A stretch of 64,000 nucleotides of DNA, from contig OZ316891.1 of assembly GCA_973895155.1 (NCBI GenBank), forward strand, positions 13,051,037-13,115,036. The letters are read 5' to 3'. Shown here piece by piece: positions 10,001 to 56,430 of the stretch. Below the pieces are notes generated by a model. The model searched no databases and had not been told where the DNA came from. It saw only the letters and a list, made by a program, of their open reading frames with translations. Positions within the stretch are counted from its first letter, which is position 1, and every line of letters begins with the position of its first letter. Origin of the DNA: Marsupella aquatica. Lineage: Eukaryota; Plantae; Marchantiophyta. Both the position numbers and the translations under genes were made by a program.

Positions 10001-13000
10001 CTGAAGGTATGTGCAATATTATTGAAGTTCGTAATTCTAAATATAATCCTAATTTACTAATTTGTCGTTTTGTAATGAAGCTGCAACAAAGTGGGCTATA
10101 AACAACCTTATATATATTCTTGTTGTAATGTGTGCCATCTTGTGTCATCTTTGACTTCCATTATTTCAGTTGTTTAGTTTTTTGCTCAGACAAAATTGTT
10201 TCCACTCATTTTTGGGGTATGCTTGTATGGCACTGAATGCAGGGACTAGATGCTTTGATGTCATTAATGGAACTTTATGCTGCAAACAATATCTTGGCTG
10301 ACTTCAATGAACTAAACTATATCCGAAACCTCCCCAGACTCATAGTTGTGGACTTGTCAGGGAACACTTTCTGTGAAAGTAATGAGTACAGACAATATAC
10401 CATTTACACCCTACGAAAACTCAAAGTAAGCTCCTATACATTTCTATGATTATTTCGAATCTGTATTATTTTGCCTCTCTTTTTTTTGGGGGGGGGGGGG
10501 AACTGGACAAAGGCCCTCTTATGTGCATCTTATGTTGTTTTGCAGTCCATCCCACTTAAGTCTTTTCTAAGATAAGTTGAGGTCCTGTCACTAGTTCCAG
10601 AATTCTGGCGGTGAAGGTGAGGCTGTGAAATCTACTCAAAAGCTCAGGTTCCATCAACCCCTAAGCTAACTTGGGTAGATTTCTCCAAAACCTGTGCAAG
10701 CGTTGCTCGAGGCAGTCCAGCATCTAGTTATGACTGTTTCAAAATGAGTCAAAATGGAAGATTTTTGGTGAATCCAGACTGACCATAGTACCTCTCCTCA
10801 TTTGACTACTGGGTTTTCAATCTAGGCCTATCAAATAAAGTGGAAGGTAGTGTGGTGCTTTCCTTCAAAAACTGGTTCAGAAGGTTTTCCTAGCTTAAAG
10901 TTAAGAAAGGTGGTTTTTATAATGAAAATCAACCTTCCACATCCAACCTGATTATTTGACTATCTTCGTTGCATTTTGGGGCACCAAAACATCATAGATG
11001 TCATAAAATTAGTTGTGCAGTTGAACCTTATGGACCTTGCAACTACCCAAAGCGAGCTAAATCAACCTGCATAGTATGGAGATTGTCAGATTTCTTCAAT
11101 ACATTTTTCTGGTGACATTCCCCGAGAGTTTCGAATTTGCCTGAACTATATTTCATGGTCAACAATTTGAATGCTTATTAAACATTTTATGCTTAATACA
11201 ATTTATGGCGTTTAAAGGTTCTTGATGGGAAGAATGTGGAGACACATGAGCTCACACAAGCACGAAACAAGTATATGGGGCGGTTGAATGAAGATGTTCT
11301 GCGGGATTGCGTGGGTCATTGCCAATTTTCCATGCTTGAGGTACAATATATCTATGGTGTCAAATTTAAGTGAATTTTTCATGCATAGGCAGGCTTGAGG
11401 TGGGTGCCATTGCAAAAGAATGAAACCCCCTTATATACAGTAGATAAATTTTAAGTAATAGGAGGGCTTCTGTAAGTGCATGGCTCAGTTGAAGTTACAA
11501 AAAATTGACAAAAGCAATGTCAGTAGCTTTGGACCATCCTATAATTTAAATTTTGAGTGTTCCTACGACATATGTTAGAGGATCACACCATTGCTTTTTG
11601 CCCTTGTGCAAGCGTGCATCACAAGGTTAAAAATTTTCTATGTACTTACCCCGCCTAATTCAAGGTAATTCAAGGTGCCTTTATTCCTCCTCTTTCCGCA
11701 AAACTATAGTAACATTAAAAGATGAGCTTCTCACATTGCATTGAAGTCAGAGAAATAAACAGCCAGGAAGAGGTTCTTAATTGGAGTCCTGGCCCGGTTT
11801 GAGCAAGACCTGTGCAAAACATTAAATATTTTCATTTTAGGAAATGATGCCAAGGCTAGAATATTAGTCTCCTGTTTTCGGATATGAGAATGGAGCTACC
11901 AGACCATTGGTCTCCTGTTTTGATTTTCTTAGTTTTGAAAACAATGGACTGGAAAGTCAAGGTTTTCACCAGGATGCTTGGAATCTTCTTGAAATTTACA
12001 TTAAACATTTTTCTAGTTGCACAAGACCCCAATATTTTGCTGTTCAGACCAAAATGTTAATAGTTATTTATTTAAAACCGAGATGGCACTCCAGTAATCA
12101 AGCATGAACAGAGAAATTTGCAGGTGGACAAACACCTCCAATTTTGCTGAACTGTATTTTTTCTGTACAAAAATTAGCATTATCCTTCAACAGATTGTAA
12201 TCAAAGTTAACCTTATGTCATATGTAGGTTTTGGACCTCTCCGGGCAAAAGCTCAGAAGTTGTGGAAACGTGTTTGAAAATCCAGACATACACAGACTTA
12301 CAGAACTCAATCTTAATGACAACATGTTAACGTCCATATTTCCTCTCAGGTATATACCCCCGGTAACTCAGGACTCCACATAACAAGCCAATTTTTTCCT
12401 TATTGAAATAAAGATAAAGTTACTGCATAAATTGTCCTTGGCATTAACCTGTTAGTTCAAACGATTATTATTTGGAGTCAAATGCATAAGGTAGCAGAAA
12501 ATATCAATGGCCAAGCTTAGAATACCCAGGACCCCACAAACTAAGTACCTTTACATGCACATAATAGAAGCCTTGTTCTCTTTGTCTTGTGTAGGCTTTT
12601 GAAAAATTTGAGGGTACTACAACTAGAAAATAACAAGTTTGAAGACAGACCACTATTTGAGGCACCAATTGACAACAGTTCAGACTTATCATTCTCAAGA
12701 AATTCTCTTAATCTAAATATTACTGGTATTGAGGGCAACCAAGGACAAACCACTCTTATTTCAAAAAGCCTAACATATGATGATGGCATTTGTTTGCCAT
12801 CCCTTGAAACTTTAAAGCTTGGAGGAAACTCAATCACAAATATGTCTTCGTTGTGTTTGGAATTCAAGTTTCCAAAACTAAAGCTATTGGCTTTACATGA
12901 CAACAAAATTGTGAAGGTAGGTGTACCTTCTCTAACGGTGCAGTAACGGTGCAGCAACTTTGAGTCACGTAGGCACATTAGCAACAAAAATTGCACTCTT

Positions 13001-14703
13001 TTAGATTTAAAGTACTCTCCATTTTCTGTAACCATGGGTGAATACAATATTGGACGTATCAGGCTATATAATAACATATAGAGGCGAGGGTCTTTGGATA
13101 CAGCTGGCTCATCCTGAAACTCGTTTTTTGTTTCAATCTTGTCTTGAATGGGTTTTTCAGTTCTCCTCCTGCATTGCGGCTGCTTGTTAGTGCCGGGGAT
13201 TAGAGTTTGTCGCTGATGATTCTGTTTGCCTTTTCTGAACCCCCCCCCCCCCCCCCCCCGCGGCCCTCCTCTGTGGGCCTTGTTCAGAAAAACATTAAAC
13301 AATAGAAGGTGCCAGATCATTCAAATCATATTTGTCTTAAAATCCATGTGCAAGCTCCCTAACAAGTGTAATTAATAATGCCTTGTGTTTTGTAGGTTGA
13401 CGGCTTGGCAGGCTTGAGTTCTCTTGAGAAATTGTATTTGGACCACAATGACATTAAAGATATTGAGGAATTCTCTTTTGATGGTGTGCAAAATTTACGT
13501 GTATTAAGCCTCTCGTACAATGCTTTGAAGGCATTAACTCACATAGAAAAACTTGCTGCGTTGGAAACTTTGGAAGTATCTTCTAATCAAATTGCCCCAG
13601 GTCGCCTGGGTGGGCTTGCAAGCATTGAAAACATATCAGGACTGTCAAAGCTATTGAAACTATCTTTCATCAATAATCCTGTATGTGACAAACCAGTTCT
13701 TATCAATCTATTTTATCTGTGGGATGGGTAGGATTTTCCTGACGTGCTTAATTTTTCCAGTTTTATTTAGGCTCATATTCACATTCCAGATTTAAAGTGT
13801 TTTGTGGGTAAGGGTTGTTGAGGTCTTATTTATTTATAGGAGGGACAAAGACTGACATAGGCCAAAGAGAACATGTCAACACCTTTATTGCACTCTCTGT
13901 GGCTGCACATGATACCATTTTTATTGTGACTCCCTCTTAATGCATCGTGTACATTTGATCTGATAAAAGTTTGGTAACACCATGTTAATTAATCTAATAG
14001 AAAAGTCTTCAAACCTTGATACTGAAACAACGGTTAAGATTTGAATGCTTTGGTTTTCATATTTCACTCGTAGCAGGGCATATGAAGGGTTTTAGAAACA
14101 AGAATTCTTGTAAGTGAAAAAGAGAATTGAATTGAGTCAAAGGGACTAGCAAGGAAGACAAACACAACAACAACCAATAGTGGCCCAACTTTAAACCTCC
14201 AAATAAAACATATTAGTTATGTTTGTATTTGACTCTAGGGATCAGGGTCCATATTTCCATAGTTTTAGTGTGATCAATGGAGATGTTGTCTCAAATTTAA
14301 CTTGAAATCTCTATAAAGCATAGGAGAATAACAATAACATGAAATTAAGCTACCATGTATCATGTATGTCTTGATGAACAAGTGGCTAAAATTTTTCTGT
14401 CAGCACACAAGTAGATAGGTGTCAACATTGAAGACATGAATGTTGACATGGTGCATACATTTTCTTGACCGTTCTGACTTGAATTTCAGGTTTGTCGGCA
14501 AAACTTATATCGAGTATCAATTATAAGCCGATTATCACAACTCCATTATTTAGATGAAAGGGAGATTACGAAGGCATGTTTCCTCAACCACTTTCATTAA
14601 TGTATTTGAAATTTTGGTAAACAATGAAAGGTTATCAATGGAACCGAGCAGCACGTAATCCATTATTTGTTATATAGACTAGTGGGAGCTACATTTTGGG
14701 TCT

Positions 14704-14742
<39 letters not shown>

Positions 14743-15400
14743 TGTATATATAATATCTATATTAGCTCGAGCAGTCAGGGGAGTGTACTTTTTTTCTCTT
14801 GAGACAACAACTGCATGTTATGTCCTTGAATGTACACCTTGTTTGTTTCCTTCCTTCAACTTATTAAGAACACGTAACTCATATTAACAACCATTTGAAA
14901 TTATATTCATCTCATTGCAGGAAGAAAGACAAGAAGCGGAAGTCCAATTTTGGGGAAATAAGGACTCAAACTCTTTGCTGTCCGATTCAACTACTCTTCT
15001 TGATCATCATGCTAGTGGCTCATCTATCACTAATGGGTTTCAACTGAAGATTCCTCTCAAGGTGACTTCCCTAAATTTTGAGAGTGTGTGCTTACAGCAG
15101 TCTCCTCGAGGGACTTATCAATTTACAAATCCAAGTAAATCCCGAGTTACCATCTACAATCATCTATCAAATTTTTCAGGAGTTAAAGTTTGGGATGTTG
15201 ACGATCCCAAACAACAGTCCGGAGTTCTCCGTCGTTGTTTGGATAGGAATCAACCTCTGATGAGGGGGAAAGGTAAGGGTGAAAACAAGGTTATCATGAT
15301 ACCATACTCAACTTATGTAAAGAATCTAAGTCCTCCACCCGGTCCTCCAAAAGATTGGACTCAAAATGTCAGCTTTCAGAACAAAGGCTTTGCATTGTAG
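1009..15400 (+). CDS. LRRC9: Leucine-rich repeat-containing protein 9 homolog (SDS22-type LRRs plus central ADP-ribosyltransferase/PARP-like fold), 20 coding exons, ~1598 aa
   Basis: Hand-assembled, phase-consistent exons: 1009-1069, 1281-1512, 1762-2029, 2939-3037, 3191-3387, 4018-4298, 4454-4644, 4908-5096, 5762-5912, 6283-7004, 7916-8039, 9038-9582, 9869-10006, 10243-10425, 11218-11340, 12228-12349, 12595-12916, 13396-13680, 14490-14573, 14921-15400 (4797 nt, a multiple of 3). All introns are GT-AG except 14574-14920 (GC-AG). Recalled LRRC9-like segments: LEMFLFNFTRI..FPNLTSLSLVQQ, FSDPHWGPSPLALLHNYQTYILFRL, RKRVYYNLCIK, ELDSGGNIRMESG..DIWYKSCVELVTSRF, WFVFDAAVVVPEYLVEFEY, YRQYTIYTLRKLKVLDG. 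The first exon is the least certain. Confidence 0.9.
14705..14738. repeat. (CA)17 microsatellite in the last LRRC9 intron
   Basis: Perfect CA dinucleotide run. Confidence 0.95.
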
Positions 15401-16331
15401 CATATGATCTAAGTTACCCATCACTTACTAAAGCATAGAAGAAAATTAAAACTTCCTCAGACCTCATTTTGTTGGAAGTGTCTTTTGTCTTAGCAACTTT
15501 TTACTGCTAGCCTGTAACAATTATCTACAGTAGATGGTAAAACATCTCTAAATATGAATTTTCTTTACAAGCCCTCATTATAGTTTCTGAGCTCTGCAAT
15601 AAACTTGGCATTGTACAACAAATGCCATTATTTTGTAAAGTAAAGATTTGGTGCTTTTCTGGAAAGAAAAGAATTACTTGAAACTAGTTCATTTGAACAA
15701 ATCTTAGAATTTCAAAACAATTTTCCCAGAACATAGTTGTAAAATCAATGAACATCTTTAGATATTTCTGTTGTTCTTTCAATACTTGCCATAATTGACC
15801 CTAACATAATTTCTCTTCTTACTCTATCTATATAGCAAAATTTTAGTGGCTTTTTACATCACCATGGGTGAAGCAGGAGTAGTGCTACACTTCCAGCAAA
15901 ATATCAATCAGTGGACCCAAACCAAACTTATCAGATAGCTGACAACCTAGGTAGGGAATAAAACCTGTCACCTCATCCTCAAGTACACATTTGTGTTTGG
16001 CCCTCTACTAAACAGGAATTAGGGAGAGTAGGAGAAGATGATCAAGGAGATTTAAGTTCTTCCTTGTATAGTCATGGTCAGGCTTATGGGGGAGAGAATG
16101 AACATGATGGACGGGGTTGGGGTAGAGTTGGAAGGGAAGCAAAGCACCAGCAAGACCATTTCAAGTCACTGTAAAAATATGTTGACCAGACAAGTAAGGT
16201 CCAGTAAGCCCAGTAACCATTGGATATAATTGTAACAATAACTATTGGATACACATTGTAACAATATGTTGACTAAGCCCAGTAAGATCAAGCAAAACTC
16301 CAATGTGTTGTTGGATTCATGATATTCAGTT

Positions 16332-16407
16332 ACGGGTTCTTTGGGTTACTAGAAAGGTATTTGAGCTAGAACGGGTTCTTTGGTTACTAGAAAGGTATTT
16401 GAGCTAC
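16332..16407. repeat. Tandem duplication, ~39-bp unit x2
   Basis: ACGGGTTCTTT(G)GGTTACTAGAAAGGTATTTGAGCTA at 16332 and 16371. Confidence 0.9.
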
Positions 16408-17681
16408 CCTGCTGGTAATCACACATCAAAATGTGGCTGCATTCATTGATTGAAAGAAAAAAATTAGGATTATCACTGTATGCAGGGGTGCCGTACATAG
16501 TATGTCATACTTTGAGCTACTATATAGACTGAATGCTGTACTTTTCCATTGGATACCAATCATTACTAGGTGCCTTAGATGATGACACGTACTCAAATCA
16601 ATTAAATTCATATATTTGGTACACAAAACTATGTGGAGAACTTAAAGACACAAGGTGTGCACTTTGTTTAGAATTATTTTCCACTCATGAGAAGTAATGC
16701 TAGAAATTCCATGAGATATGTTGAAGGGTTGGATCACAATATTAGAATTTTGAACTAGTGAGAAAGAAGAGCTGATAGCAAGGAATAATATTTAGAGAGG
16801 TGCCAATACAGTTTCAAAATCTAAACTATACAAGGGATGCACCTTGTTAAGACACATTGTAATAAAAATAAATAACAAATTTTTTGAATAAGACAAAATA
16901 TTGAAAGGTGGATTCACCATTATATATAGCTCCATCAAAATGGAAATGTAACAATTTTAATAAGAGTGCAGAAGTCATTTATTTTACAGACTTTTTAAAC
17001 TGCCTAATATTAGTATAGTAATTAAGTACTACCCAAGTTCACCTAGATACCCACTTCAATCAGGGTCTGACTTAGTGAAGTCTACAAAAATGTAAGATGG
17101 AATGAGGTGTAAAACATGTGTAAATTGAAAATTACATGTAATATGTGAAAACCAAAATACACAACAGTGACCTGCTGAGATTTTACTCAAGGAGCTGACT
17201 AACTCTATGTGATTGATTTTCTCTTTATGACCACAATTACACCTGTTGTCCCACATCTAACCTGAGTTAACAAAACCTTCATCAACAGCCCACTATCAAT
17301 ATATGCACCACTTTGATATCCACAATGCACCAAAGATAAGGGACCCTTGTCGCTACTTTTGGAGTGTTTGTCCTCATTAGACCAGGCTGTTGGTTTTAGG
17401 GATGCAATTAAATGTAACTCAATTGGCAATAATGTTCTAGAACCAGGCAGAAGGACCACAGTGGTCAAAGGACTACAGTCTCATGGATTTCCTGCACCTT
17501 CAAAGAACATCACAGCGCTTTCCAAAATAAGGCCAGCTTCTGTACATTTGTGTGCCCTTAAATTCTATGAAGTTCTGGAATCAAAGTTCTGGAAATGTCT
17601 ACACACCCTTGAGCCAATCAACAACTCCTTTGACGCAGGTTCATGCTGAAGCTAGCCTTTGATTCTAATCATCATAAAGCT

Positions 17682-17709
17682 GATGACTGATGACTGATGA
17701 CTGATGACT
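17682..17709. repeat. (GATGACT)4 short tandem repeat
   Basis: Four direct 7-bp copies. Confidence 0.85.
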
Positions 17710-19441
17710 CATAAAGCTGATCATCTGCAACCCAACAAACTGATAAACTAGTCAAATAAAAGGTTTCCAACATCACAAAGAATCTATTCCCTCAACTAGT
17801 TACCATTCTTACAAAAATGATGTTCATGCATTCTGAAGTGATCTGTTTGTCCATTCAAATCCCTATATGGACCGATTAACCAGAATAATGACAAAACAGC
17901 CACTTAGGAACACTTCTTAGCCACGACTAAGTGATATAGTGTAGTTTTTCTCCATCATTGAATTCATTCCAAAATTGCTACTGGATTTCTAGGTTCATTG
18001 GAACAGTACTTTTAAGGAATGATCTTCTATGAGTTTGGCAAATTGATACATTCTATATAGACTGCTGACATTAGCAAATACAGTCCAAGTTATTTGGTTT
18101 TAGTTTGCCTTTCATTCATTTTGAATACTTTCCATAGTGAAGCTTATCTACCACCTTTGTTTTTGTCTACCTCTGTCATCAGGTTCACAGCCAAGAGGAA
18201 ATCCAGGGCATCTATCATTTTTGAATTGTGTTTATCCAATTTCCAATTGTTCTGGCAATCATCTAAAGTATTCCCACATTGCCTTCTTGTGAAAAACCAA
18301 ACAAGGCAATCAAGTCAAGCTACTTTCTCAACCTAAATATCTCAACCCATGGAAAATCCCAATTGGGCAAAATTTGTTTACTTGCTAAACTCCTCCACCA
18401 TTTTGTCATGCCGAGGGACAATGCCTCTTATGCACATCGACACTTCCCTCGCATGCCCGCTAGGTATGTAGTTAGGGCCACTGCTTGAGTTAGTGACATG
18501 TTCATATAGCAAATTCAAGGCGTTCTTGAAGCAAACGTGCTTGTTAATGTGACGTCAGGAATTTATTTACTTACGGCATGTCGTTCTTTGTTGGTTTTCA
18601 ATTCTGGTTTACACCTTCACTATGTACATACCACTTCATTTGCTTTTTCTTGACACTTGTAAATGTGATGAGACTTTTTCTATGCATGTTGGTTGCTAGC
18701 AGCTTGCACATGTGCATTGCCGATGCCTTGTATGTTTTCGATACACTATGGCTACGATACTATATGTCACGACAATTTTGCTTAATGCAAAATGTAGAAA
18801 TGTTGGCTTTGCTTCAACAAAATTGTTGTCTAGAGCGCTATGTCTTGCATCAACAGAAGTGCCACCATTGCTTGATGCCTGATGCCTATGCTTGATGCTG
18901 GTTCTGCAATGGCAATTGATATAGGGATGGTCCTACATTCCTTGTCCATTGGCAATACCTAACATAGGGAAGCAGACTCCACACCTATTGCCACCCTTTC
19001 TTCTTTGCAATTGGCTCCAATGTATATGTTTATGGTCCTGCTATGCTCCTTAATGAAGCATATGGGGCAACCTTATGCTGACCCGCAAGAGCAGGGAGGT
19101 GTACCTTGGATTAGCGGTTGAGATTGATCCATCTGGTGGAATCGCTTGTACAGATTGAGAGATGCTACTTCTGACACATGTGGTTGGAGAGGCACCCTTC
19201 TCTCAAGCAATCACAACCCTTTCATTCAATTGCCAACATCCCAGATGATCTTATGATTGTTTCATGATCATCCAACGGTGCAGATTGGTAGGGTTTACTA
19301 GCTGGACGTGACAACTACTTAGTCTAAAAGAGCCACGCATTGTAGCCATTTTGCACTTCCCTTTTGGATGCCATGAGGCTGCGGAGTTTGAGTTTGAGTA
19401 CCAGGGGCTTTTCTGTGGATGAGCTTTGTAATGTGCATTTA

Positions 19442-19458
19442 AGAGTTTTTCCAATTTT
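19442..19458. repeat. LINE target-site duplication (left copy)
   Basis: AGAGTTTTTCCAATTTT, identical to 26318-26334. Confidence 0.9.
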
Positions 19459-19693
19459 CCTTGCAACATTTTATAATTTTTAATAATTTTGGTCACGAAA
19501 ACCCCGTGACAGAGGAAACACAAAGAACCATCAAGTAGGGCATTTCAGCCCCAAGAGACACACAGAAAAGCCAACCGCATCCCTGCAACCAAAAGCATAC
19601 CAGAAGGGACCCAGAGCAGGCCACGACCCACCTCAGTCAGGCCGCAGCCCCCATCAGAAAATCCAATCCGCTGTGTCGCCACCCCCTTACTTC

Positions 19694-22600
19694 CTACCCC
19701 GATGTAATCCATACATCCCTATGTCGCAGCCATTCAATTCTTTCCCTATTAATCATTTCCTTAGCCCGCAAAAGTCGCGTTTTCCGGTTACAAGCAGGCA
19801 GTGTCAACAGTATTGCAGAGACATGGTCAGCCACCTCTGAAAGGATGAATCTGAAATCCAACCTTCTGCTCCCACTTGCCTGAAACATGTGCTCATTGCG
19901 CCCCAACCATAATGCCCAAAGCATCTGAAAGAGCACAATCATCATTACAGTCTTGCCATGGTGCCTTCCAATCGCAAGATCAACAAGTCTCATCAACCCC
20001 CCGGGATAACCTGCAAATAAGCCGCCAAATCCTAGTGAACAGAGAGCCCAACATTTCTGTGCATGGATACAGTCCATAAATAAATGCGGGATAGTCTCCA
20101 GTATCCCGGGCATAGCTTACACTCTCCATTACCTTTACCTATCTTTACAGCTCTCACACTAGTGAACAATCCTGATGCAATAACTCTCCACGTAAAGGTT
20201 CGGGCACGCATTGACATGCCTGAACCCCATATCCCAGCCTAACAATCATTCCATTCCCGCTCCATTTTACTACTCCCCCACGTCCTGTTCAGGCTTGGCT
20301 GATCCTCCATACAAGGTCGAAGTAATTGATATGCCCTCCTGTTGGGGATCTTAAAGCACTTCAATGAGGCAGGATTGTCAGCCCAAGACCAGCATCGAGG
20401 GCCCGGTTCAAACTCCCACTCACATCGTGGAATTGAGTACACTGCCTCCAAGAATCTGATTCTCAGGTGTGAATCCCCTCAGATGCTCCCACCGCCCTTC
20501 TAGTCTTTGCCATTCCCCTCGTGCTTCTTGCCACAGATCCTGTATACACCTGATGCCCAGTCTCCCACAGAGCACTGTAGTAGCAGCCATATCCTCATTA
20601 CTCCAAGATTAAAATCCTTTCAGGCATCTGATCACGTCCCCTACCGACCATCGGCCCGGTATCATATCAGTTGGACAAAAGATCAGATTAGCCCGCAGCA
20701 GTGCCCAAGCCTTCCAGAGCCCTCCCGTGTAAGTGAGACCATGGAGCGCCCCAGGACTACAAAGCAGCATCTTGTCCCTAAAGGAGTAGTTGTTCCTACG
20801 CACAACCTTGTAATTCGCCCAACCAAGCAATTTTAAATTCTCTGCGAACATACCGGCCCATTCCGTTCCAGGCAAATCAATCGCTCTTGTAAACCACTTC
20901 GCCAGTAGAGCGTTAGAGTGACTCTTGAAGTCTTTAATCCCTAGCCCCCCCCTCAGCTTGTGGCCGGGTCATCCTGCCCCAAGACACCAGTGGTATTCTC
21001 CGCCCCCCTCCGCGTTGTATCCCCACGGGAAGTCCCTACACAGCGCTGTCATTTTCCTGTCCAATCCATGAGATGCTTTAAGAAACATCGAGTGATATAT
21101 TGGGATTGCCTGTAGGATGTGCCTCACCAGCAGAGTTCTTCCAGTGAATGAGAGTAACCTATTTGCCCATGAGGATAATTGCTGCCCTATTTTGTCAAGT
21201 ACAAAGTTGTGCAGTTGTTCCACCTTCAAATCCACCCCCAATGGGGCCCCGAGGTATTTCTGTAGCTCTCCTCGTTTGCTGATCACACATCCCGTGTCCC
21301 GAAGCCAACTCCGGATGTTACCAAGAACCAGAGGGATCACGATCGACTTCTTCAAGTTGAGTCGGGCCCCAGTGGCAGCTTCATAGCACTCAATCACTAC
21401 AGTGACCTGATGAAAATTTCTCTCCATTGCAGGGGTAAACATCCCCCAATCATCCGCAAAAAAACGGTAGCAGATCGTAAGTATCTCTGAAACCTGTATC
21501 CCTGCAAGTCTACCAGCTGCTAGTTTGGCATCCATAAAGTCCATTAATGGTTGCGTGGAAATAACAAACAGGAGTGGCGATAGAGGGCATCCCTGCCTGA
21601 CTCCCCGTTTGAGTTCTATCTCCGTTGATAGCATTCCATTCAAGTAGACTCTTGACGTTGCATGTTTCAGCAGTGACTGTACTAGTTTAATAAAATTGCT
21701 GCTAATTCCTAGCAGCTGCATTGTCTCCCAGATGTAATCGTGATCTACTCTGTCAAATACCTTCTCAAAATCCAGCTTGAGAAAGAGTGCCTCATACTTC
21801 CTGCTTTTCAGCCAATCAAATGTTAACCATGCCAACAAAATATTTTCCAGTATGTTTCTCCCCGGGATAAATCCCGTCTGCTGCGGGCTTATTAGCTGTG
21901 GCAGAACTCTAATGAATCTGCGTGCCAATATCTTTGCAATCAGCTTATAAATGGTGTTCAGCATGGTTAGCTGTCTCCAGTCTTTCAGCATTCTCTTGTC
22001 AGCCTTCTTGGGGATGAATTTAATTGTCCCCTCTTTTACCCCACTTGCCAGCTTCCCCGTCAGCCAGAATTCTTGTACCATGGCTACTAAATCCTCTTTC
22101 ATGAACCCCTAGCACGCCTGGTAAACTTCCACTGAAAGTCCATCCGGTCCAGGTGCCTTATCCTTGGGGAGCAGCCACAATACTTCCTTGATTTCCTTGA
22201 TGGTTGGCAGCCCCTCAAGCATCCCAATCTCCCATGCTGATAAGGGCGCCCGAGTATGCTCAAGCAATCTGCTTTGTTCCTTTAGAATGTTCCTCCTCTC
22301 TTGATTCGTGGGATCTCCCGGGGCGTACAGTTCCAAGCACGTCCCTTCGACCTCTCTCAGTATCATCCCTGCTTCTCTAATTTCACTCCCCCCCTCTAGC
22401 AGCAAGCACTTCATTGCCTCGCGTTCCCTCTTGGCCCTCACTATTGCAAAGTAAAACCAAGAGGGTTCCTCCCCCTCCCCCAACCACTTAATCCTTGCCA
22501 GCCGTCTGCCTCTGTATGCCTCCTCTAATTCAGCCGCATGGAGTAAGTCTTCCACCTCTATATATTCCCTTAGTTCATTTCCGGAGCATTCTTCCATAAT

Positions 22601-23599
22601 TGCCACCTTTAGCACTCATAATTGGTTTTGTAGTAACAACATCGCTTCCCCACTCTTCTTTGGTGAATCCTGCCGCTCCTTGTATGCCCTTCTCAGATTT
22701 TGACTAGCCTTATCAAATGCCAAAATTGGATCAGCCTCTTCCACTTTTCCTTTGTTCCATGCTACTTTCAGTACCTCAACCGTGCCTTTCATCAACACTA
22801 GTGTCGGGTTAGCCTTAAAAAGTGTAATCCGTTTCAGAGGGCTTTCCTCCCCACCATTCCCGTTCATTCGCATGCAGACCACCACCAGATCATGGTCAGA
22901 AAGAGCTGACCCACCATCATGTTCCAATTTCATCAGTTGGTCAATCCACTCTCCATTGTCACTGAAATATAACCTGTCCAGCCGGGATTGCACCATTTTG
23001 CCATTTCTGTTCCTGCGCCAAGTGAAGCTCGCCCCGTCAACAGCTCCCTTAAAGATTACTGCATCTACTAGGTTAAATCTGACCTTGAAAAACCGTCAGA
23101 ACTCCGCCTCTCTACCCTTAATTAGAGAGGATTCCCCTGTAGAGTCTTCCCTCCGCTCTGTCATATTAAAATCCCCACAAACGATCCAGTTAGCCTGAGG
23201 CAATATCTGCGTGAGCTCGTTCCATAGTATTGCTCTTCGTTTAGGCGAATTAGGTGCATATACACTTAATATCCCGAAATTGCATTCTGCATATCTCACT
23301 AATGCCCATACTGCACGCCCAAGATCCACCATTCCCGACGCGATCAGTTGTACAGCCGGGTGTAAGAGTAAGGATGTTCCTCCGCATCCCTCTTTAGGGG
23401 CCGAGGTGACACACCGGTACAGGGGCAATATTGCTCTCATAGCTACGTCCAATCTAAACTGATCTGCTTTGATTTCCTGTAGTGCCAAAATATCCAACCT
23501 TTCCTTTCGCGATTCTATCCAATTCTTAACAACATTCTTCCTGTTGGGCTCACACAGCCCACACACATTCCAAGAGGCGATCTTCAACATTCCACCCAT
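19694..23599 (-). pseudogene. LINE ORF2: AP-endonuclease + reverse transcriptase + zf-RVT, with in-frame stops and frameshifts
   Basis: Endonuclease motifs ASWNVCGL, LALQEIK, VYAPN, GDFN, SRLDRLY, SDH. RT motifs KAPGPDG, WRQLTMLNTIYKLIAKILA, QTGFIPGR, KLDFEKVFDRV, GVRQGCPLSPLLF, FFADD, KYLGAP. C-terminal CKLC..ETIPHLFMDC. In-frame stops at ~23096, 22616 and 22109, with frameshifts after ~20990. Confidence 0.93.
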
Positions 23600-23632
23600 G
23601 CTCTGTCCACCTCCCCACGATTCCCCTAGCAC

Positions 23633-25633
23633 TTACAGCCGATTCCGGCCACCCAAAGAAGTACCCAACCCAACACTCCCGCTCCTGCGGCTCCTGGGCG
23701 TCTCCGTTAGAAAATCCCCAGTCTCCTCCATCAGGTGATCCCCAACAGGTGATGCGGTGCCCACCAAATTGCCCCCTCCACCAGCTCCCGGTGGGGTGGC
23801 AATATCCACTGTCATCCTTGCCCTCTCCTCCCCGTGTGAACACTGAAATGCCTTCTCTGCAACAGGTACAGACAAAAGTGAGAAGTTAAGGGAGCGTTGT
23901 TTTTTTGCCTCTTGAGGTGCACGGTCCTTCTTAGCCACTAGCGGTGTCCTCTTGTCCAGCTTCCTTGCTCTCTCTTTCCCTTTGTCGGAGACATACTCAT
24001 ACTCAGACATATCCACATCAGTGTCCCCATGAAACGAATATGCCTCCGCGTCCACCCCATCCTCATTGCTGTGCGTTTCAATCGAGTCTGCAATAGTCGA
24101 TGCAGCCTTCCCGCTAGGTGCAAAGCTCCATGCCCCGGCATCTAGAGTGCTAGGCAACAACACCTCGGTTGCCGGTAGTTCCGTCGTCAACACCCTGTTC
24201 AGGGCAGGTCGCAGCTCCTCTCCCCTATCCCTCTGAGAGGCAATAGTCAAATTTTCTGCATTCCCCCTCCCACCTTGTTGATTGTCAGTGGAATCTGAGC
24301 CTGCTTCTTCTCGCATCAAAGCTTCAACAGCCAGTAAGTCCGCAGTTACCGTGTTGTCCTCCCTAGGGGCAGTCCTTCCCACTCCCATTTTGACCCGTAG
24401 ATTCGAGGCTAATTGCCTCCTCAACACCTCTTCTGGGTCTCCCTCGGCTACCTCATCCAATTCGTCAAGAGTATCATCTGCCGCCTCCCCTTTGTTCTCT
24501 TGATCAGCTTCCGCCACTACGCCTCTTCCCTCTCGGCATTCCCAGGCAAGGTGCCCCTTCTTGTTACATTTGAAACAGTGAAAAAGAATGTTCTTGAATA
24601 GAATCGGTTGCCAAATTATTATATCCTCTCGAATTTTGATTCTAGCACTTTGTGGCACCTCCCGTTCCGTATCCCACAGAATGCAGGCCCTATCATGCGG
24701 ATAAGAGTTAATTTGTAGTCATCACCTTGAATGTAATGCAGCAGCTTCCCCAGCGATTCCGCAATCTTAATGCAACACCCCTCTAATACCAGCGCGCGGA
24801 ACGGTAGCTCTATCCACACTGGCAACTTAGTGAATTTTGCAGACCTGATATCAAAGGAAGGATCCCAAGGGAAAGTAAATACTAATTTCCATTCCAAAAA
24901 CCAGGGGGCGGCCTCTAGGGCCAAATCATGATGGTCCGCATTTTCAAACACCACCATATAGAAACTTTTCCCTACGAATTTCACTTGCAATACCGGCCAA
25001 TTGTGCTCCTCAATCATCCATTCTTCCACCCATGCCCGAAACGTTGGCAGCATTGGGGTCCAGTCGGTGAAGTAGCAGAGCATTGCACAATTGTACAGTT
25101 GCTTCACATTCCCCGCTGCCTCCTCAAGACTCCAGTCCACCGTTGTGTACAGTTTAGAGCTCCAGTCCCCCTTTGTGTTATCTGCAATCTCTTTTAATAT
25201 ATTGATGCATTTGTCCGACACTTCTTCCCTCTCAGGTCCTTCCCCCTGCTTCAATGTCACTCCTGCTATAGAAACTCCTGGCTCAGCCAATTTGTGATCC
25301 CTGGATAGGAGATTCTGCATCAGTGATACGAACTTCAGCTCCCAATTTTTGAGCTGATGCCGCAACACTCAGTTTGGTCGGCTCCACCCCCGGGCATAGT
25401 GATGCCCCAGCCTCACTTTTATCACCAGTCTCCTCCCGAGTTGCCCGGGGTTCTCCAGAATCCAATTGCCGCTTACGAGCATGCTCAGAGTTTGCATACA
25501 AATCAAAGGGCGGCTGAGCCACAAAGTAAGGCCGCCTGTTAGGCGCGTCCTGCGCTCCCCTGCCCCGGGGTAGAGGCAAGCTTCGTGCATCCTGCCTACT
25601 GTACCTCCCATTTATCTCATCGTGCAATGTCAT
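23633..25633 (-). pseudogene. LINE ORF1 (DUF4283-like RRM + CCHC zinc knuckle), frameshifted
   Basis: VKFVGKSFYMVVF..ALEAAPWF..FPWDPSF..LPVWIELP..IAESLGKLL and CFKCNKKGHLAWEC are typical of plant L1 ORF1. Frameshifts near 25370 and 24700. The start codon is tentative. Confidence 0.85.
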
Positions 25634-26317
25634 CTTACTGAAAATGCAGGAGCAATACCAAAGTAATAAGGGACAGTTGCCTCTCACCTCACGCCCCAAG
25701 CTTTCAGTGTGTTTTGTGGCCTGCGGTCCCTGCTTAATCTTCCTCTTACCGTCTCCTCAACTATCACATTCTTTGTTTACACCTTCCAGCCTCGTCCCTT
25801 GGCCTTGCACTGTTCACCGACCTCTTCCACTCTGTCCGATTCTCCCGATCCACCGCTGCAACCCTCTTGCTGATCTTCAGCCAGCCCTTACCCTATCTAT
25901 TCCTTGCCCACGCTCTCTTGTTTTCTCTTAATCTGCTCTTACTCGCCTCTATGCTTCCATCTCTTATCGTCTTAATCCCTAATCCCTCCTCCCCGTTGGC
26001 TCTCCTGTAGTTTTATCCGTCCGTTTCTCACTTTTCTGCTTTTCTTGTTACCCTGATACCAGAAACGACGGTTTCCTGTCTAATCCCACTTACTCCCAAT
26101 CCCTAATCCACCTTTGCGAACCGTATACTTTCGCTCCTTACTCAAACCCTTAGTTTACACTCTCGTTCAAAAGAGTTTCCCCAAGTCAATCTGCAGAATC
26201 TAATCGCCTTCTGCCCCCAACCCGATGACCCAGCAAGGCACATCCCCAAATTAATGTTCCGCTGTCCGCCTAGCTCCTCAGTTCTCCTCAGTTCCTATAC
26301 TTTCCTCGGTAACCCGT

Positions 26318-26334
26318 AGAGTTTTTCCAATTTT
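26318..26334. repeat. LINE target-site duplication (right copy)
   Basis: AGAGTTTTTCCAATTTT, identical to 19442-19458. Confidence 0.9.
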
Positions 26335-27419
26335 GACATGCACTACGCTTTTTACCTTTGGAGTTCTACTCGATGTTTTCCACAAGGTTTGCAGTTTGCC
26401 TTTTTCTCTTCAAGCTTCTGCATGCATGCTCTTGTCTATATGTTGTGCTCGATCTGGAAGAAGGTTTTTGTCTCTCCTACTTTATTGCGTGCATATTATA
26501 ATGTCAATGTGGCCTTAATTGACGTCTTTTGCTTTCCAACTTAGATGATGACAAAGATTGACAACCTCTCGTGAGACTACTTTAGAATTCTTGTACTAAA
26601 AATGTAATGTTGGAAAAAGTGGCTCTCCCTACTACATGGTTTGACATTATGCCTACTAGCTAACTTCCACTGACCACTGCTATGCTTTGTATTTTAAGAC
26701 TCTTGTCTAAGTAATACTTGTGTAATAATGCGCTCGGCTCCGATGTACTAACATCTGTTGCAATGCATTGTATTTTTACGGTGTTGTGCTCAAACTGTCT
26801 TATGCATGCATATTCCTGCACATTTTTGTTTTTGATGTACATTTTGCCATTGTGGATGTCAGGCAATCCTCATTTTTCAGTTAAATCTAAACGAAGAGGA
26901 CGCTTCAACAAGCCTCCAAAAGTATCCCAAGGTTTTTTTGACTGGTTTCTTGCATTTGCTTTGACTTTCTTGATGAAGTTGCAAGACATTTGTACGTGGT
27001 CCTTCAGCTTGACATTGCTTGGGGTAACTCAGCTTCATTCATTCTTCCCTTGAGTGTCTGGGTTTTATTTGATGGATTGAGAGCCGAAACGAGGCATTGT
27101 TCTAGCCAACTGATTGCCTACTTATGACCTGAATGATGAAGCAGATGTTGTTGGACAGATACCACCATCTTTCAACTTGGGAATGTCTTCAATGACTTCA
27201 AGTGACGCAACCTCGTTTGGAATAGTGCTTTGAGCCATTGATTGAGTGTTCATCCAGTGCTGAGTCCTATACCTGTTTAAAGTCAGATAGACAGAACCTG
27301 AATGGAGAATCAAGGTCATTGCCCTTGAATAGATGTCCTTGCAGCTGCTAACTATCAGTCTTTTGGACGGTTCTTCATGTGAGTCTTCTTGAAGATCAGA
27401 AGTTATAGCGCACCCTTGC

Positions 27420-28460
27420 CAAGGGTGGCAGTAATCCAAGTGTTGCGGTGGTAGCGAACTATCTTAACAAGACCATTAACATTGCCATTCCATTCGAGGA
27501 AATACCTGGCCGAGACAGTGTAATGCTGCTCACCAAGTTTTTCAAGCAAGTTTGCAAGAAAGACGGTGACCTCTATCCCTCTCAGACCCTGATGGAACTG
27601 TACCGTGCCTTCCACAACATTCTTAGGAATAAATGGGAGAGGCACATCATCAAAATAGGTAAGGAAGAGCCAGTGTTTGACATGAGATCTTCCCCTCTCT
27701 TCAAGCGGCCGGTGGCTATTGCATGTGTTTTGGCTATGGAGCAATCAAAGAAGGCCGGTGCAAACCTGCCACGAAATTAAGAAGGCCTTGGTAATCACCT
27801 TTGCTGACAAAAAGCTACTATTCTGGCTCATTTGAGCACTTCAGTCACACATTCCAGAAGCCTGTAGTGGAGGGCAGTCACCTTCTTACTAAATTGATTT
27901 TGTATCCATGGTGGGAAAGAACTATACAATCTAAAGAAACATGATTTTTATGATTGGATATGGCATGCATGGTTGTTTTGTTAAATACAACGAGAGGCTT
28001 AACAAGAACTATTGAATAAGGACAGATCGTTAACCAAGAAGAACACTTCAGGCACGCTGTGATTAACTGTGACTTTGATGTGCTTGAAACACTCAAGATA
28101 TGTGTTGATTCATCACCTTGTTCATCACCTTCCAGTAATGTCATATTTCTCTTTTACCAATGCATTGATCATCCAAGAAGGCATGATTGGTATTCAACTT
28201 CTAGACTTGGTGAGAAAATCTTGGGTTCTTGTCTTAAGGTTGTGCACCAAGAGGGTAGGTTGGCCAGCTGTCCATGGACTGGGCACAATTGGTGTATCCA
28301 ACAAGACAGGCGCACAACTTGTGTCTAGCGGATCGGTGCTCAGGGTGTCCCATTGATAGTTTATGAAGATTTCTGGTCACAAGAGCGAGGGTGCCCACAA
28401 ACAATATGATCATAGTTCTGAGGATCAAGTGCGAGCCGCATTGAGATGTGCCACTGATGG
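27420..28460 (+). pseudogene. Crypton/DUF3504-type tyrosine recombinase, degenerate (stops and frameshifts)
   Basis: Ordered motifs across frames: LLTKFFKQVCKKDGDLYPSQTLMELYRAFHNIL (cf. LxKFFxEVRKKDGxEYxPxTL), FCI[H<R]GGKELYNLKKHDF (cf. FGLRGxxEHxxL), YNERLNKN, WYSTSRLGEKILG (cf. WYxxxPLGxNTL), SNKTG/RTT, GVP..MKISGHKSEGAHKQYD with the catalytic Tyr codon at 28405-28407. Confidence 0.8.
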
Positions 28461-30809
28461 CAGTCCTTACTCGCCAGTGAGTTTGGAGACAACAGAGGGG
28501 AAACAGGTGCTCATTGATGGAGGTATAGGCCAGGAAGAGATTGTCCCTGCTGTTTCTGTTGATGGTGATACAGGCCAGGCCGAGACTGATCCTACTGTTC
28601 CTATGGATGAACCACAACTGAAGAAAGCAAATGATGGAGCATGGGTAGAAGGTAATAAGCTTTCTTTTTTGGTTGAAGTTCTTGGGTTAGTTTGTGGATC
28701 ATGAGGATAATAAGTTTATTTTTGTGTTTTGTGCACAGGGAATGTACTATATTGAGTTTGCAGACTGGGTTGGTCTCAGAAGTCCTTGTTGAGGCTGCTC
28801 AAAGTGAAGTAGCTATTACACTTGTGAGCTTTGAGCTCCAGCCTGACATGTGGTGCCTTCCCTGATTGCACCAAGCTCTGATGAGCCAATCCACTTCAGT
28901 CAACAACCACAGTGCTTGTTTCCTTGAGTCCATGGAGGGATGGGTTGAGTGCCGAGCCAAGGTGGAGAGAGATTGCTCCCCCTAACGTGAGTGTTATTAA
29001 CCCTATGGTGAATATTGTTGTTGATAAAATTTAAGCGCTAACCAATTGCACCATGAATGGTTCCACATTTAGCCTTAATTTTGGCCCACATGGACAAGGA
29101 CCTGGATTAATAGATAGTAGACTTTGCTCATATTATACAACACATTATAGCAGCTAGTGGAAATTTGTATGGGTGTCCAGAATTGCCTGGAGGCGTTCAT
29201 CTTAGCTCTTTGAGTCATTGAACTGTGATTTTTGTTTACACATCAATAAAGTTCTATCCCCCACCATGGGATTTCATTATCAAAGTTCTTGCGTTTTTGA
29301 AATTGCCAGCTATATCCCCGGCTGTATCCACAAATTAACTGGTGTACAAATATGGTTTTTGTGGTGTATGAGATATAAAGCTGCCTACACAGCAAGCCCT
29401 GAGAAGCGAAGAGCAATAAAAATCACTAAACTACCCTTAACGCCGGGGGCCGGGGGGGGGGGGGAGTTGGGCCGTATCCCCACCCAGCCCGCACTATGTG
29501 AACCAGGGGGGGGGGGCTAATAATAATTGCTAAAGTTCACATGACAGGCCCAAAAATGGCAAACTGATTGTCAAAATCTTATTGTTCAACCTATTATTGT
29601 GACAAAAAGTTTTTGTCATGGGTCCTCCTTACACTAACTTTACGGTTCTAGGGCTAGTCTTAGCTGGTGTTTGTTTATGGAAACAGTAACCGGGTTAGTG
29701 ATCATAGATGGGACAAAATATTTTAACTTGCTTCCAGACTGTGGCCGGGCCATTCTAATTTTCCTGAGCCAAAAGTTTTATGAGTTTACTTTTTAAGGTA
29801 TTTGGCTGACACCTATGGTAGCCAAATACCTTTTCTCAGGGTGTTTCAGGCTGTCAGGTTTAGAATTTGATTCCCTTGCCAATTCCTGCAAATCTCAGCA
29901 TATTTTCCCTGCACAACCATGTCTGAATGTCCCTTTATTGCACAAATTTTCAGGCTGTTGCGTCTACCCTTTAATTTTACTCTCAATTTCCCGAAAGCCC
30001 TACATGTTTTCCCACAACAGCCCATACTTTTGAAACCTAGCTTTATTGTGGAGATGCCAAATACCTTACTAATAATTTGCATCATAAGCTAGAGTTGGGG
30101 GCTAGGCTTTTAGAATGAAGCCTCTAGACCTTGACTCTAGGGCCCCACCAAAATTTAAGGAGGTATTTGCTTGATGGGACCCCTGACTGATCCAGACTGT
30201 TGATTGATGTTGATAGGCCTTGAATCAACTGACCCAACATTTCAGACACATTTCAATTTGGGGTCCCATTAAAAAACGACCTCAAAGTTTGTGTTATGGA
30301 AAGAAAACATATTATGCAAGTCAAAATAATATCATACACAATTATTTTTGTCAATCATTTTTATTAACTTTCGAAGAATGTTCGGGCTCGTGTGTCACTA
30401 ATCGTTTTTGCTTGAACCTAATTACTAACTGCGGTACACGTCTGACGGTGTCATCTCAGAACGGTGGCAGTAGTGTACTGTACACTGTAAAATCGGGACG
30501 AAGGGGTCCTCTTTCGTCCCCACAGGACACAGGTCACAGGACGACCGTCATACGGTAAGGTAACGCGGCATGCTAGGGAGTCGTGCGGACTGCACAGGCA
30601 AGGTCGTGTACTCGTGTGCTCCAGGCCCGCTCTATGGCCTGTGGGTCGTCGACCTGCAATTGCCGGTGGCGGGGATGATCGTTCCCGGTGAGGCGGGACG
30701 TTAGAGACGGAGGGGACGCGGAAAGGTGACTTGCGGGGGAGGTCTCGGCGGTGGAGTGGTGCAAGACAGGACTAGCGTAGCCGACGGCCTATCTCTGTGC
30801 CGCGAACTC

Positions 30810-30920
30810 GCTCTCAGCTCCTCTTCTTTTTCTGGTCTTCCGCTGCTCTTTTCGCTCAAGAGAGGGGAGGCTCGCTCTCTCGTTCGCTCTCTCGCTCTCT
30901 CTTTCTCTCTCTCTCGCTGG
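30810..30920 (+). promoter_or_regulatory. CT-rich (Y-patch/GAGA-like) tract in the CpG-rich ADF promoter/5'UTR
   Basis: (CT)n/CTCG-rich run ~450 bp upstream of the ADF ATG, in a CpG-retaining segment. Confidence 0.5.
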
Positions 30921-31363
30921 CTGTGCTCGTGGCTGGCGTCTTGCGAGCGAGCACCTTAGCAAGTAGCAACGTCGGCCGTCTGAGTTCGCTCGCTCGTCCC
31001 GCGTTCTTCGTCGCGAGAGGGAGGAGCCGAATATAGCATGCAAGCTTGATCAGCGCCTCCCTGCTTGTGGATCGCCTCGCTCGGCTCGTCTCGGCTCGGC
31101 TTCTTGTTATTGCGCGGATGCACACCGGGATCTTGGAACTAGTTGCGCAATTTTGGGAGTCGAGGAAATCCAGGAAGGGAGGGACGGAGGAGCGCAGGAG
31201 CAGAAGAGAGACGAGGAGGCGTTCGATCGACGAGTTGAGGCGAGGCAGGGCGGGGCGAGGCCAGCGGAAGTTAGCGTTGACTCGAGTGCGTGGAAGCGAA
31301 GTGCGGTGGTGGTAGTTCGTCTCTTGGCGGAAGCATTTGGTCGTGTACTCAGCGATTATTGCA

Positions 31364-32062
31364 ATGGTATGTAGTCTGCACTAGTGCGGATCTTGTCGAG
31401 AGGTTAGTGTGGATCCTTTGCTCAATGTCAGTGACGGTGTGAGGTAGCGATTGTGAGTAGCCTGATGTGGTCTGAGAAGAGCGATCGGTGGATGTAAGGT
31501 GACTTGAACGCTTCGCAAAGAATTTATTTACGTTCTTTCTTTATGCAGGCGAACGCTGCGTCGGGAATGCGTGTTAGCGACGATTGCAAACTGAAGTTTA
31601 TGGAGTTGAAGAAAAAGAAGACCTATAGGTACATCATTTTTAAAATTGACGAGAAGGTACAGGAGATCACAGTGGAGAAGGCTGGGGGCCCTAACGAGAG
31701 TTATGATGCTTTTTCGTCGTCTCTTCCCGAGAGTGACCCGAGATATGGCATCTTCGACTTCGATTTCGTCACCGAGGACAACTGCCAGAAAAGCAAGATT
31801 TTCTTCATCGCGTGGTAAGGTTGAAACCTACTGGTCTGTGGCTCTCCTGTTGACAAATTGCTCGTCGTCCCTTGGGTGTCTGTTGTATGACTCGAATGAC
31901 TGCTTTCTCAGGTCTCCAGATACTTCCCGAGTCAAGGCTAAGATGTTGTACGCTACCTCCAAGGACAGATTCAGGAGGGAACTGGACGGTATTCATTACG
32001 AGGTGCAGGCAACAGATCCGACCGAAATGGACATTGAGGTCATCAAGGAGCGGGCCAATTGA
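31364..32062 (+). CDS. ADF: Actin-depolymerizing factor (ADF/cofilin), 139 aa, 3 coding exons
   Basis: Exons 31364-31366 (ATG only), 31549-31814 and 31912-32062 (420 nt), with GT-AG introns. Protein [35 protein letters not shown]...[74 protein letters not shown]. The ATG-only first coding exon and Ser6 are canonical for plant ADFs. Confidence 0.97.
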
Positions 32063-54633: not shown

Positions 54634-55919
54634 CTTTAGCCTCCAAAGTGAGGGTCGGAGTTCTGAGTTTGACTGTGGGCTATCACTGTCTTGATCTTCC
54701 CCACCCCTGAATAGGCTGGCTGGTGCTCCTCTGCCCCTCTGATTGAAAACTGAAATCTGAGTTCTATGCCATAGTGGAAAGTAGGTTTGTGCAAAATGCA
54801 ATTAGATCAAACAAATTCGTTTGCAGTACAAAAATGTGAGGTTCCAAAGAGGGGTGGACTGGAACCATATGCAGGCAGAGCAGGAAATGGAGCGAAATTG
54901 AAAGTGCACACCACGAAGAACCTTATATGAGCCACTGCCCAGGAGATGGTGTAATTGGTTTGAAATTGGCTGCAAATACATGTTTTGGCAGGCCTAAGTG
55001 AATACCAAAAAGATAGGGCCACCCATGAAAGAACGGAAAAAGAAACAAGCAAAACTTATTTTCCTTGCGACTTAACAATGGCGAACCAAGTCAGGGTCTA
55101 GCTTTTGAATTTGACTCCGGGCTACCATCCTTAAATGTTGGACTAGAATCCCCAATCAATTCCGTGATGACGCAATCTGCTGGGCTGCAGGCAGGACAAA
55201 GCAACATATGCCCATGCAATGATGCAATGATGCAATCGAGTGGCTGCAATGATTGCATGAGCAGCCGAATTATGGTGTGGAAGGTGCAATTAATGGCAGG
55301 GACAGAACTCTCATTGGGAAAAAAACATGATGTACGATCTGACGATCATGTAGAGTAGCACAAACAAGTTAGGTTGCTGGCCTTATAATTATGCCCTCTA
55401 AAAAATTTTAAAAAAACATTTTAAAACTTTCGTCTCCCGCAACCATTCAAATATCAATCTACGCCAAAACTAACTTAATTATCAGGTTGTCGTTTCTTAA
55501 ATGTGATTTGACTTAACCATGCACATTAACCCAAAACACATGTTACGAGGTCAATTTTGCACAAAAGATGTCATTATGTAATTATGTCATTGTACTTAAA
55601 ATGTTATTAAATAAAATATATCATTAAATAAAATATATGGTTGTTCAAAAGATATAGTTAAATATATATTATTATAAAAAATATTTTTTACTAAAAAATA
55701 TTATTCGATAAAAGATGTTAATGTGTAATAAATGATATTATGTTAAAGATGTAGTTAAAAAAATATCATGATACAAAAGATATCTTTGTTAGAAGGATCT
55801 CATTGCATTAATTAATTGTCAAATGAAAGATGTTATGACACAAAGAGAGAAAACAACCACCACCCAAGTATAGCAAAATGAGAATGATTTATTTTGTTAT
55901 TTTCTTTTTAAACCTTAAT

Positions 55920-56430
55920 ACAAAGATGTTGATGAGAAAAAAAGATGTCAAGCTGAGAAAAAGAAGTAAAGCAAAACAATTGTCAAGGAGAGAAAAGATG
56001 GCTATGTGAGAAAAGTATGTGAAGATAAGGAAAAGATGTTGTGGTGAGATAAAATGTGAAGGTGAAAAAAAGGTCAAATCGATGTTAAGGTGAAAACATA
56101 TGTCAATGAGAAAAAAATATGTTGAGGTGAGACAAAGAAGTCAAGGTGAAAAAAGATGTCGAGGAGAGAAAACATGGCAAGATGAGTCCCGAGGTGAGTG
56201 AAAGATGTTGTGGTGAGATAAAGATGTCAAGGTGAGAAAGTTGTCAAGGTGAAAAAAAGATGTCAAGATGACAAAAAGATGTCGAGTCAGGTGAGAATAT
56301 ATAATTCTCGAGGAGAGAAACAAAAATCAAGGACCTAAAAGATGCCAAGGGGGAGAAAAAATTGTCGTTGTGAGATAAAGATGTCAATGTGAGAAAGAAA
56401 TGGCGAGATGAGAAAAATATGCCAAAGCAA
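55920..56430. repeat. Degenerate purine-rich minisatellite (~20-bp AAAAGATGTCAAGGTGAG-like units)
   Basis: Many diverged copies of AAAGATGT(C/T)(A/G)AG(G)TGAGA. This explains the Phe/Ser/Leu/His-rich spurious minus-strand ORFs. Confidence 0.75.

Follow-up and report, generated by a model that had tools for sequence, protein, structure and literature searches.

A decayed tyrosine-recombinase (YR) gene lies within a 64,000-nucleotide stretch of contig OZ316891.1 of the liverwort Marsupella aquatica (the window, for short), and is probably the remnant of a dead CryptonA-like DNA transposon, a repeated unit of about 3 kb that encodes a DUF3504-related YR and belongs to seed-free land plants. The decay of the gene, the presence of further copies and the kinship of its product are documented below, as is the prediction that an intact relative folds like Cre. 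Movement by the YR would follow from the enzyme family and from the Crypton model given in PMC13465315.

Extent, motifs and decay of the recombinase gene

Frameshift-aware alignment of the window with its nearest relative, the protein P0001, showed identity at 280 of 434 aligned residues (65%) and a total of 18 lesions, comprising 12 frameshifts and 6 stops. The gene begins at 27165, about 255 bases 5' of the start in the original prediction (Table 1). Alignment by the same approach to P0003 of Calypogeia fissa extended over 27385-28488, with 181 of 354 residues identical and a score of 711, as compared to 33-38 for five shuffles, a match well outside what chance would give. Four relatives searched against the window by tblastn gave E values of 1e-85 to 5e-45 at the YR locus, and for the same four no match better than E 0.3 was found elsewhere in the 64 kb. 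When the 3344 six-frame peptides were searched with a plant profile from which the window sequence had been kept out, 6 matched at E<1, all of them collinear and at the YR locus. By both tblastn and profile search, the window carries a single YR copy.

Six motif blocks in a given order had originally been read from this locus, and all of them were found in that order on the forward strand between 27526 and 28407. The Arg to His change proposed within the block FCI(R>H)GGKE was borne out by other copies, which read CGT at 27907-27909. The block given as SNKTGRTT stood in part, since SNKTG and RTT are both there but span a one-base frameshift and are read in two frames. Five of the six catalytic codons are retained in the window copy, with His in place of the first Arg.

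Table 1. Positions of the recombinase gene, its motifs and the neighbouring features in the window
Feature	Position	Strand	Remark
Host gene, long multi-exon leucine-rich-repeat (LRR) gene	1235-15400		
Exact 17-bp target-site duplication of LINE	19442-19458 and 26318-26334		
L1-type LINE (DUF4283, zinc knuckle, endonuclease, RT = RVT_1)	19459-26317	-	near full-length, a few stops in ORF2
Repeated unit, about 3 kb	~26550-29500	+	depth in run X2; another copy aligns from ~26550; ends good to ~200 bases
Decayed YR coding region, N-terminal helical DNA-binding part and catalytic part	27165-28506	+	alignment to P0001
Longest open piece, 123 aa, N-terminal helical domain	27409-27780	+	E 7e-41 to 7e-30 to three proteins
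Motif LLTKFFKQVCKKDGDLYPSQTL	27526-27591	+	first of six blocks
Motif FCIHGGKE	27898-27921	+	second block
Position of first catalytic Arg; His (CAT) in window copy	27907-27909	+	other copies in same runs, Arg (CGT)
Motif YNERLNKN	27986-28009	+	third block
Conserved Lys of SKNY motif; likely catalytic beta-hairpin Lys, by inferred equivalence	28004-28006	+	
Motif WYSTSRLGEKILG	28188-28226	+	fourth block
Motif SNKTG	28297-28311	+	fifth block; RTT at 28311-28319, read in a second frame
K-x-x-R motif, with Lys at the place of the His of most YRs; broken by one-base frameshift	28303-28313	+	alignment with XerA PHVLRH
Motif MKISGHKSEGAHKQY	28363-28407	+	sixth block
Retained catalytic residues: second His at 28378-28380, nucleophile Tyr at 28405-28407	28378-28407	+	
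Possible GT-AG intron, variable C-terminal tail	28652-28738	+	sequence reading only
Host gene, plant-type actin-depolymerising factor (ADF)	31498-32062		

Lesions between 27713 and 28028 were identical in contigs of three runs from two studies (one run is possibly the source). Since they are unchanged in several runs they are not assembly errors, and an assembly artefact was ruled out. No RNA run was present among those listed as containing the window locus. Seven pieces of the window gave no Pfam match to YR or DUF3504, and the YR assignment therefore rests on the intact relatives. CpG depletion of the element (0.34) was no stronger than that of the neighbouring LRR gene region (0.31), and hence says nothing on silencing. 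A near-duplication of 45 bases in the tail (28514-28599) and, within the YR gene, a duplicated stretch of 12 bases (28109-28131) were also seen, adjoining two of the frameshifts.

Family, predicted fold and active site

A protein search against 1.84 billion representatives returned 642 matches at E<=0.001. Below the plant-like matches were proteins 24-30% identical to P0003, and every one of the 13 distant matches scanned scores above the DUF3504 cut-off as well as matching QRICH1 and Phage_integrase; Branchiostoma was the one host named for the ten of them that were looked up. Comparison of the plant profile with a DUF3504-type profile gave a probability of 100 and an E value of 1.6e-48 over 344 columns. 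P0098 and P0088, both of the plant clade, pass the Pfam DUF3504 cut-off of 29.7, while P0004 (24 bits) and P0003 (12.7 bits) fall below it. P0004 nevertheless matches DUF3504 with E 4e-5 over residues 3-160 of 162, and automatic UniRef labels on two plant members read DUF3504 or Tyr-recombinase. The YR/DUF3504 kinship that had originally been proposed was thus upheld by the profile-profile match, by the Cre-like predicted fold described below and by the DUF3504/QRICH1 domains of the nearest non-plant relatives. The profile matches expected along with it were found for intact relatives, whereas the window motifs had no Pfam match to DUF3504 and most plant members remained under the cut-off.

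A family profile of 66 sequences compared with the PDB found QRICH1 (9HJT) as the best match (E 3e-20), followed by XerA and IntI4; no PDB match was obtained with an 8-sequence profile of liverwort type. The best matches in the Atlas were DUF3504/integrase clusters at 0.98. For P0003 (642 aa) a structure was predicted from an alignment of 66 rows, non-plant DUF3504 rows among them, with a pLDDT of at least 90 for 304 residues, and a 6-row alignment gave a mean pLDDT of 42.5. Cre was the best solved match of the model (Foldseek E 5e-8), and VIA-align placed 294 residues of model region 96-441 on Cre (Z 18.7, rmsd 5.6). P0003 is predicted, on the strength of this model, to have the lambda-integrase/Cre fold. 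Pfam detected neither GCR1_C nor any further conserved domain at the C-terminus of the plant members, whose C-terminal tails are unalignable. The two-domain predicted fold and the spacing of R, H and Y, which aligns to XerA, are shared with Cre, XerA and other tyrosine recombinases; the plant family differs from these in sequence (identity 11-13%) and in having Lys at the first His.

In the alignment, K388, R391, H414 and Y423 of P0003 fall on the H-x-x-R, H and Y of XerA, and R268 and K300 were assigned by alignment with DUF3504 rows. Tyrosine recombinases as a group are marked by the catalytic set R-(K)-H-x-x-R-H/W-Y. Of 27 plant-clade proteins, 11 have R-K-K-R-H-Y complete. None of the 23 plant-clade proteins that can be aligned has the first catalytic His (20 have Lys and 3 have Arg), which 18 of 19 non-plant rows retain. 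Lys is also found at this position in type IB topoisomerases and protelomerases, and by analogy the change from His to Lys need not abolish activity.

We placed the window copy in a tree of 53 rows, from which fragments were excluded and in which 23 non-plant DUF3504 rows, as the search returned them, served as outgroup. The plant members and the window copy formed one clade of 30 rows (support 100/100), and within it the window copy fell in a 7-row group with P0001 and P0003 (support 100/100).

The repeated unit and its surroundings

Contigs from four runs of two studies with the locus were aligned to 25500-31500 at 80% likeness. The further copies are known as short contigs only, and the summed contig depth, which in run X2 was 29-94 across 26706-29519 as against 14.6-17.5 in the single-copy flanks, is not a copy number. 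A different letter was carried by 2-7 contigs per run at 28186 and by 2-8 at 29063. Several diverged copies of the unit are present in the runs containing the window locus. Some of the other copies are without the frameshifts near 27384, 27778 and 27812, have no stop at 27865 and show Arg (CGT) at 27907, where the letters of one codon may stem from different contigs. Since other copies are free of these lesions, the lesions arose in the window copy from a coding ancestor. That the gene belongs to a repeated family, as the original prediction held, agrees with the multiple diverged copies in the same runs, and the window copy is unlike a single intact conserved locus. Near the approximate ends, which are not base-exact, no convincing terminal repeat was found (longest direct 10 bases, longest inverted 9 bases), and no empty site was found among the contig joints listed. 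Cryptons are characterised by the lack of terminal inverted repeats, their ends being bare or carrying direct repeats of 4-6 bp.

The LINE to the left was correctly taken to be a separate insertion, as its domains were found and it is bounded by an exact 17-bp target-site duplication. The nearby RT was considered as part of the YR element and rejected, since it lies inside this duplication. Fungal or animal contamination was rejected as well: the YR locus is continuous with the plant-type ADF gene and the LINE, and the nearest named relatives are plants. The type of LINE and the ADF gene suit a land-plant host, and those relatives point to a liverwort. To the right of the unit, 30086-30157 is a short, very high-copy repeat with a summed depth of about 100 times the flank and many unrelated loose ends; a relative of 74% identity lies on the other strand at 8389-8464. 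A degenerate array with a unit of about 19 bases occupies 55916-56426.

The YR could instead be carried as a passenger by a larger element, or be one gene among several in it, with movement due to a DDE transposase, a Helitron or a similar enzyme; the 3-kb unit would then be an internal fragment. The unit ends are placed only to about 200 bases, repetition was measured over 25500-31500, and a precedent exists in the composite MarCry-1_FO, which moves by its Mariner transposase (PMC3212892). We nevertheless consider such an arrangement improbable, because on either side of about 26.5-29.5 kb the depth in run X2 returns to that of single-copy DNA, the flanking frames contain no other Pfam domain and no terminal inverted repeat was found.

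Slightly less probable still is that the YR comes from a DIRS/Ngaro-like retrotransposon whose RT part was deleted from, or went undetected in, the window copy. Two Adiantum nelumboides gene models would favour this, as the YR is joined to RT in P0069 and to gag in P0197, and an ALOG/integrase cluster appeared at Atlas rank 8; ALOG-YR proteins belong to DIRS1-like elements, according to PMC3537659. The best solved relatives of the P0069 RT, however, include Ty3. Several Adiantum models are also chimeric with PPR or O-FucT domains, which points to elements being annotated as host genes. The Ty3-like RT and these other joins suggest nesting or chimeric models, and nesting would be the likely origin of the A. 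nelumboides joins. Against a retrotransposon, the unit leaves about 0.6 kb 5' and less than 1 kb 3' of the gene, which is too little for gag-RT-RNase H, and the nearby RT is that of a LINE. The nearest relatives are moreover DUF3504/QRICH1 proteins, and DUF3504 derives from the Crypton YR (PMC3212892). A Pfam search for RT, RNase H and gag found none in 12 reading frames of 26335-31000 and 15500-19458, a weak result as it missed the YR there too. The claim that the element has no RT or RNase H of its own finds support for the window copy alone, in which no gag, RT or RNase H was found and the 3-kb unit has no room for them. Two metagenome scans for DNA around relatives gave 111 and 67 pattern matches and no relative.

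If the unit is a Crypton-like DNA transposon, as we favour, the intact enzyme would bind both element ends by its helical N-terminal domain and nick each of them on one strand by way of a Tyr-phosphate link, using the active site R-K-K-R-H-Y. Two strand swaps through a Holliday junction would release the element as a circle, which would then recombine with a short target of matching sequence; neither an RNA step nor terminal inverted repeats would be involved. In the window copy, loss of the first Arg and of the reading frame would have followed insertion.

Distribution, likely domestication and significance

The family is old in plants. Of 20 plant-like representatives looked up, the 15 with a species name come from Calypogeia, Riccia and Marchantia among liverworts, the moss Ceratodon, the lycophytes Diphasiastrum and Selaginella, and Adiantum among ferns. 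No seed plant was found among 30 of about 150 listed matches that were looked up, and one further word search of proteins gave 16 matches, all from Adiantum. As few of the listed matches were looked up and the last word search returned Adiantum only, absence from seed plants is a lead only. Calypogeia fissa has 5 gene models on 4 contigs, in two subclades. In Adiantum capillus-veneris, 11 gene models lie on 8 different chromosome-scale contigs, pairs of them are 96.0-98.7% identical, and four carry the full catalytic set. Dispersal, near-identity and full catalytic sets together form the pattern expected of recent transposition, and the family is likely, on sequence evidence, to be still or recently mobile in Adiantum. 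The Adiantum models P0012, P0158, P0159, P0196, P0016, P0017, P0022, P0195, P0046, P0056 and P0200 make up two young subfamilies.

Two sets of genes in the clade appear to have been taken over by their hosts. Mp5g04240 of Marchantia polymorpha (P0020, P0160) is 94.5% identical to P0161 of M. paleacea, has lost the second catalytic His and is labelled in UniRef as DUF3504 domain-containing; it is named in no paper found by our literature search, and is likely a domesticated YR. The second is a lycophyte fusion gene, represented by P0047 and P0050 (two loci of Selaginella moellendorffii), P0048 (Diphasiastrum complanatum) and P0078/P0189, whose members are 41-46% identical to one another. Its first 190 residues match PDB 8P26 (E 2.5e-12), which we take to be Arabidopsis PAXX. 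A PAXX length of 236 residues is given in bioRxiv 10.1101/2023.05.26.542399, and the 238 residues of 8P26 agree with it. The head matches the XRCC4/XLF/PAXX fold, with TM 0.84 to a streptophyte cluster and 0.68 to XRCC4, where feature scores under 0.9 are leads. The rest is a plant-family YR without the first Arg that stops before R-H-Y. The fusion is best described as a likely old domestication, in which a PAXX-like head would be joined to a catalytically dead YR. In the tree, Mp5g04240 and the lycophyte fusion have long branches and come together with support 95/89, which may reflect one domestication or long-branch attraction.

These genes bear on another reading of the window copy, in which it would be the decayed form of a domesticated host gene whose copies arose through segmental or tandem duplication instead of transposition of their own. 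Likely domesticated members do occur in the clade, but the window copy has its place (100/100) among proteins with the full catalytic set, apart from those likely domesticated genes. The flanking ADF region is not repeated by contig depth, the window holds one copy only, and the Adiantum copies are spread over 8 contigs, which together make a host pseudogene as unlikely as a retrotransposon. Of the original contrast between a mobile and a domesticated family, mobility fits the decayed and repeated window copy, whereas the plant family also includes likely domesticated genes.

Returning to the transposon reading, we would tentatively extend it to a scenario that is possible, though somewhat short of probable: a land-plant Crypton lineage predating the bryophyte-vascular split, with a topoisomerase-like R-K-K-R-H-Y site, would be mobile in ferns and lost in seed plants. 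It would have been domesticated once or twice (Mp5g04240 and the lycophyte PAXX-like fusion with a dead recombinase clamp), in parallel to animal QRICH1/ZMYM.

Crypton entries probably exist from algae, as do 'DNA/Crypton' labels in automatic plant repeat tables. Our search, which covered papers and not Repbase or Dfam, found no account of Cryptons or of DUF3504 from any bryophyte, lycophyte or fern, in keeping with the view that this Crypton-like plant family is undescribed or poorly described. Table 1 of PMC3212892 (Kojima and Jurka 2011) gives only fungi, animals and stramenopiles as Crypton hosts, and the accessible part of PMC11630846 mentions Crypton as a general class only. The plant family resembles animal CryptonA in having a single DUF3504/QRICH1-type YR over the whole core, with no GCR1_C found by Pfam in plant members. 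Terminal repeats are likewise not evident near the approximate ends of the window copy, in agreement with the account of animal Cryptons in PMC3212892. The plant family differs in its plant hosts, its separate clade, the 24-30% identity of such proteins to P0003 and its K-x-x-R motif, H-x-x-R being present in 18 of 19 non-plant rows and in 0 of 23 plant rows. Glomhoppers, a CryptonA subfamily of Glomeromycota, likewise have a DUF3504-type YR with catalytic residues, many truncated copies, ends that are hard to define and nesting among other elements, as described in the accessible part of PMC13465315, which names no plant members. They are fungal, and are set beside the plant clade by that description, the tree containing no known Glomhopper sequence. 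The domesticated DUF3504 genes (QRICH1, ZMYM2-4, KCTD1 and KIAA1958) are similar in that QRICH1 is the top PDB match and that the lycophyte fusion, like QRICH1, ends before His-Tyr; the window copy and its nearest relatives differ from them in having a complete catalytic segment and in being repeated.

The window copy itself is a fossil only, and weight is carried by the family, by the young fern copies and by the two likely domestications. If our reading is true, a class of DNA transposon now left by annotation as 'hypothetical protein' would be added to land plants. Crypton-type YRs would then be known from one more eukaryotic supergroup, with consequences for the choice between an ancient origin and transfer, for example from mycorrhizal fungi. 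For Glomhoppers, direct evidence of movement is lacking according to PMC13465315, and the near-identical fern copies are candidates for testing how DUF3504-type Cryptons move. Mp5g04240 sits in a model plant amenable to knock-out, and the lycophyte fusion would tie a transposon enzyme to an end-joining repair family.
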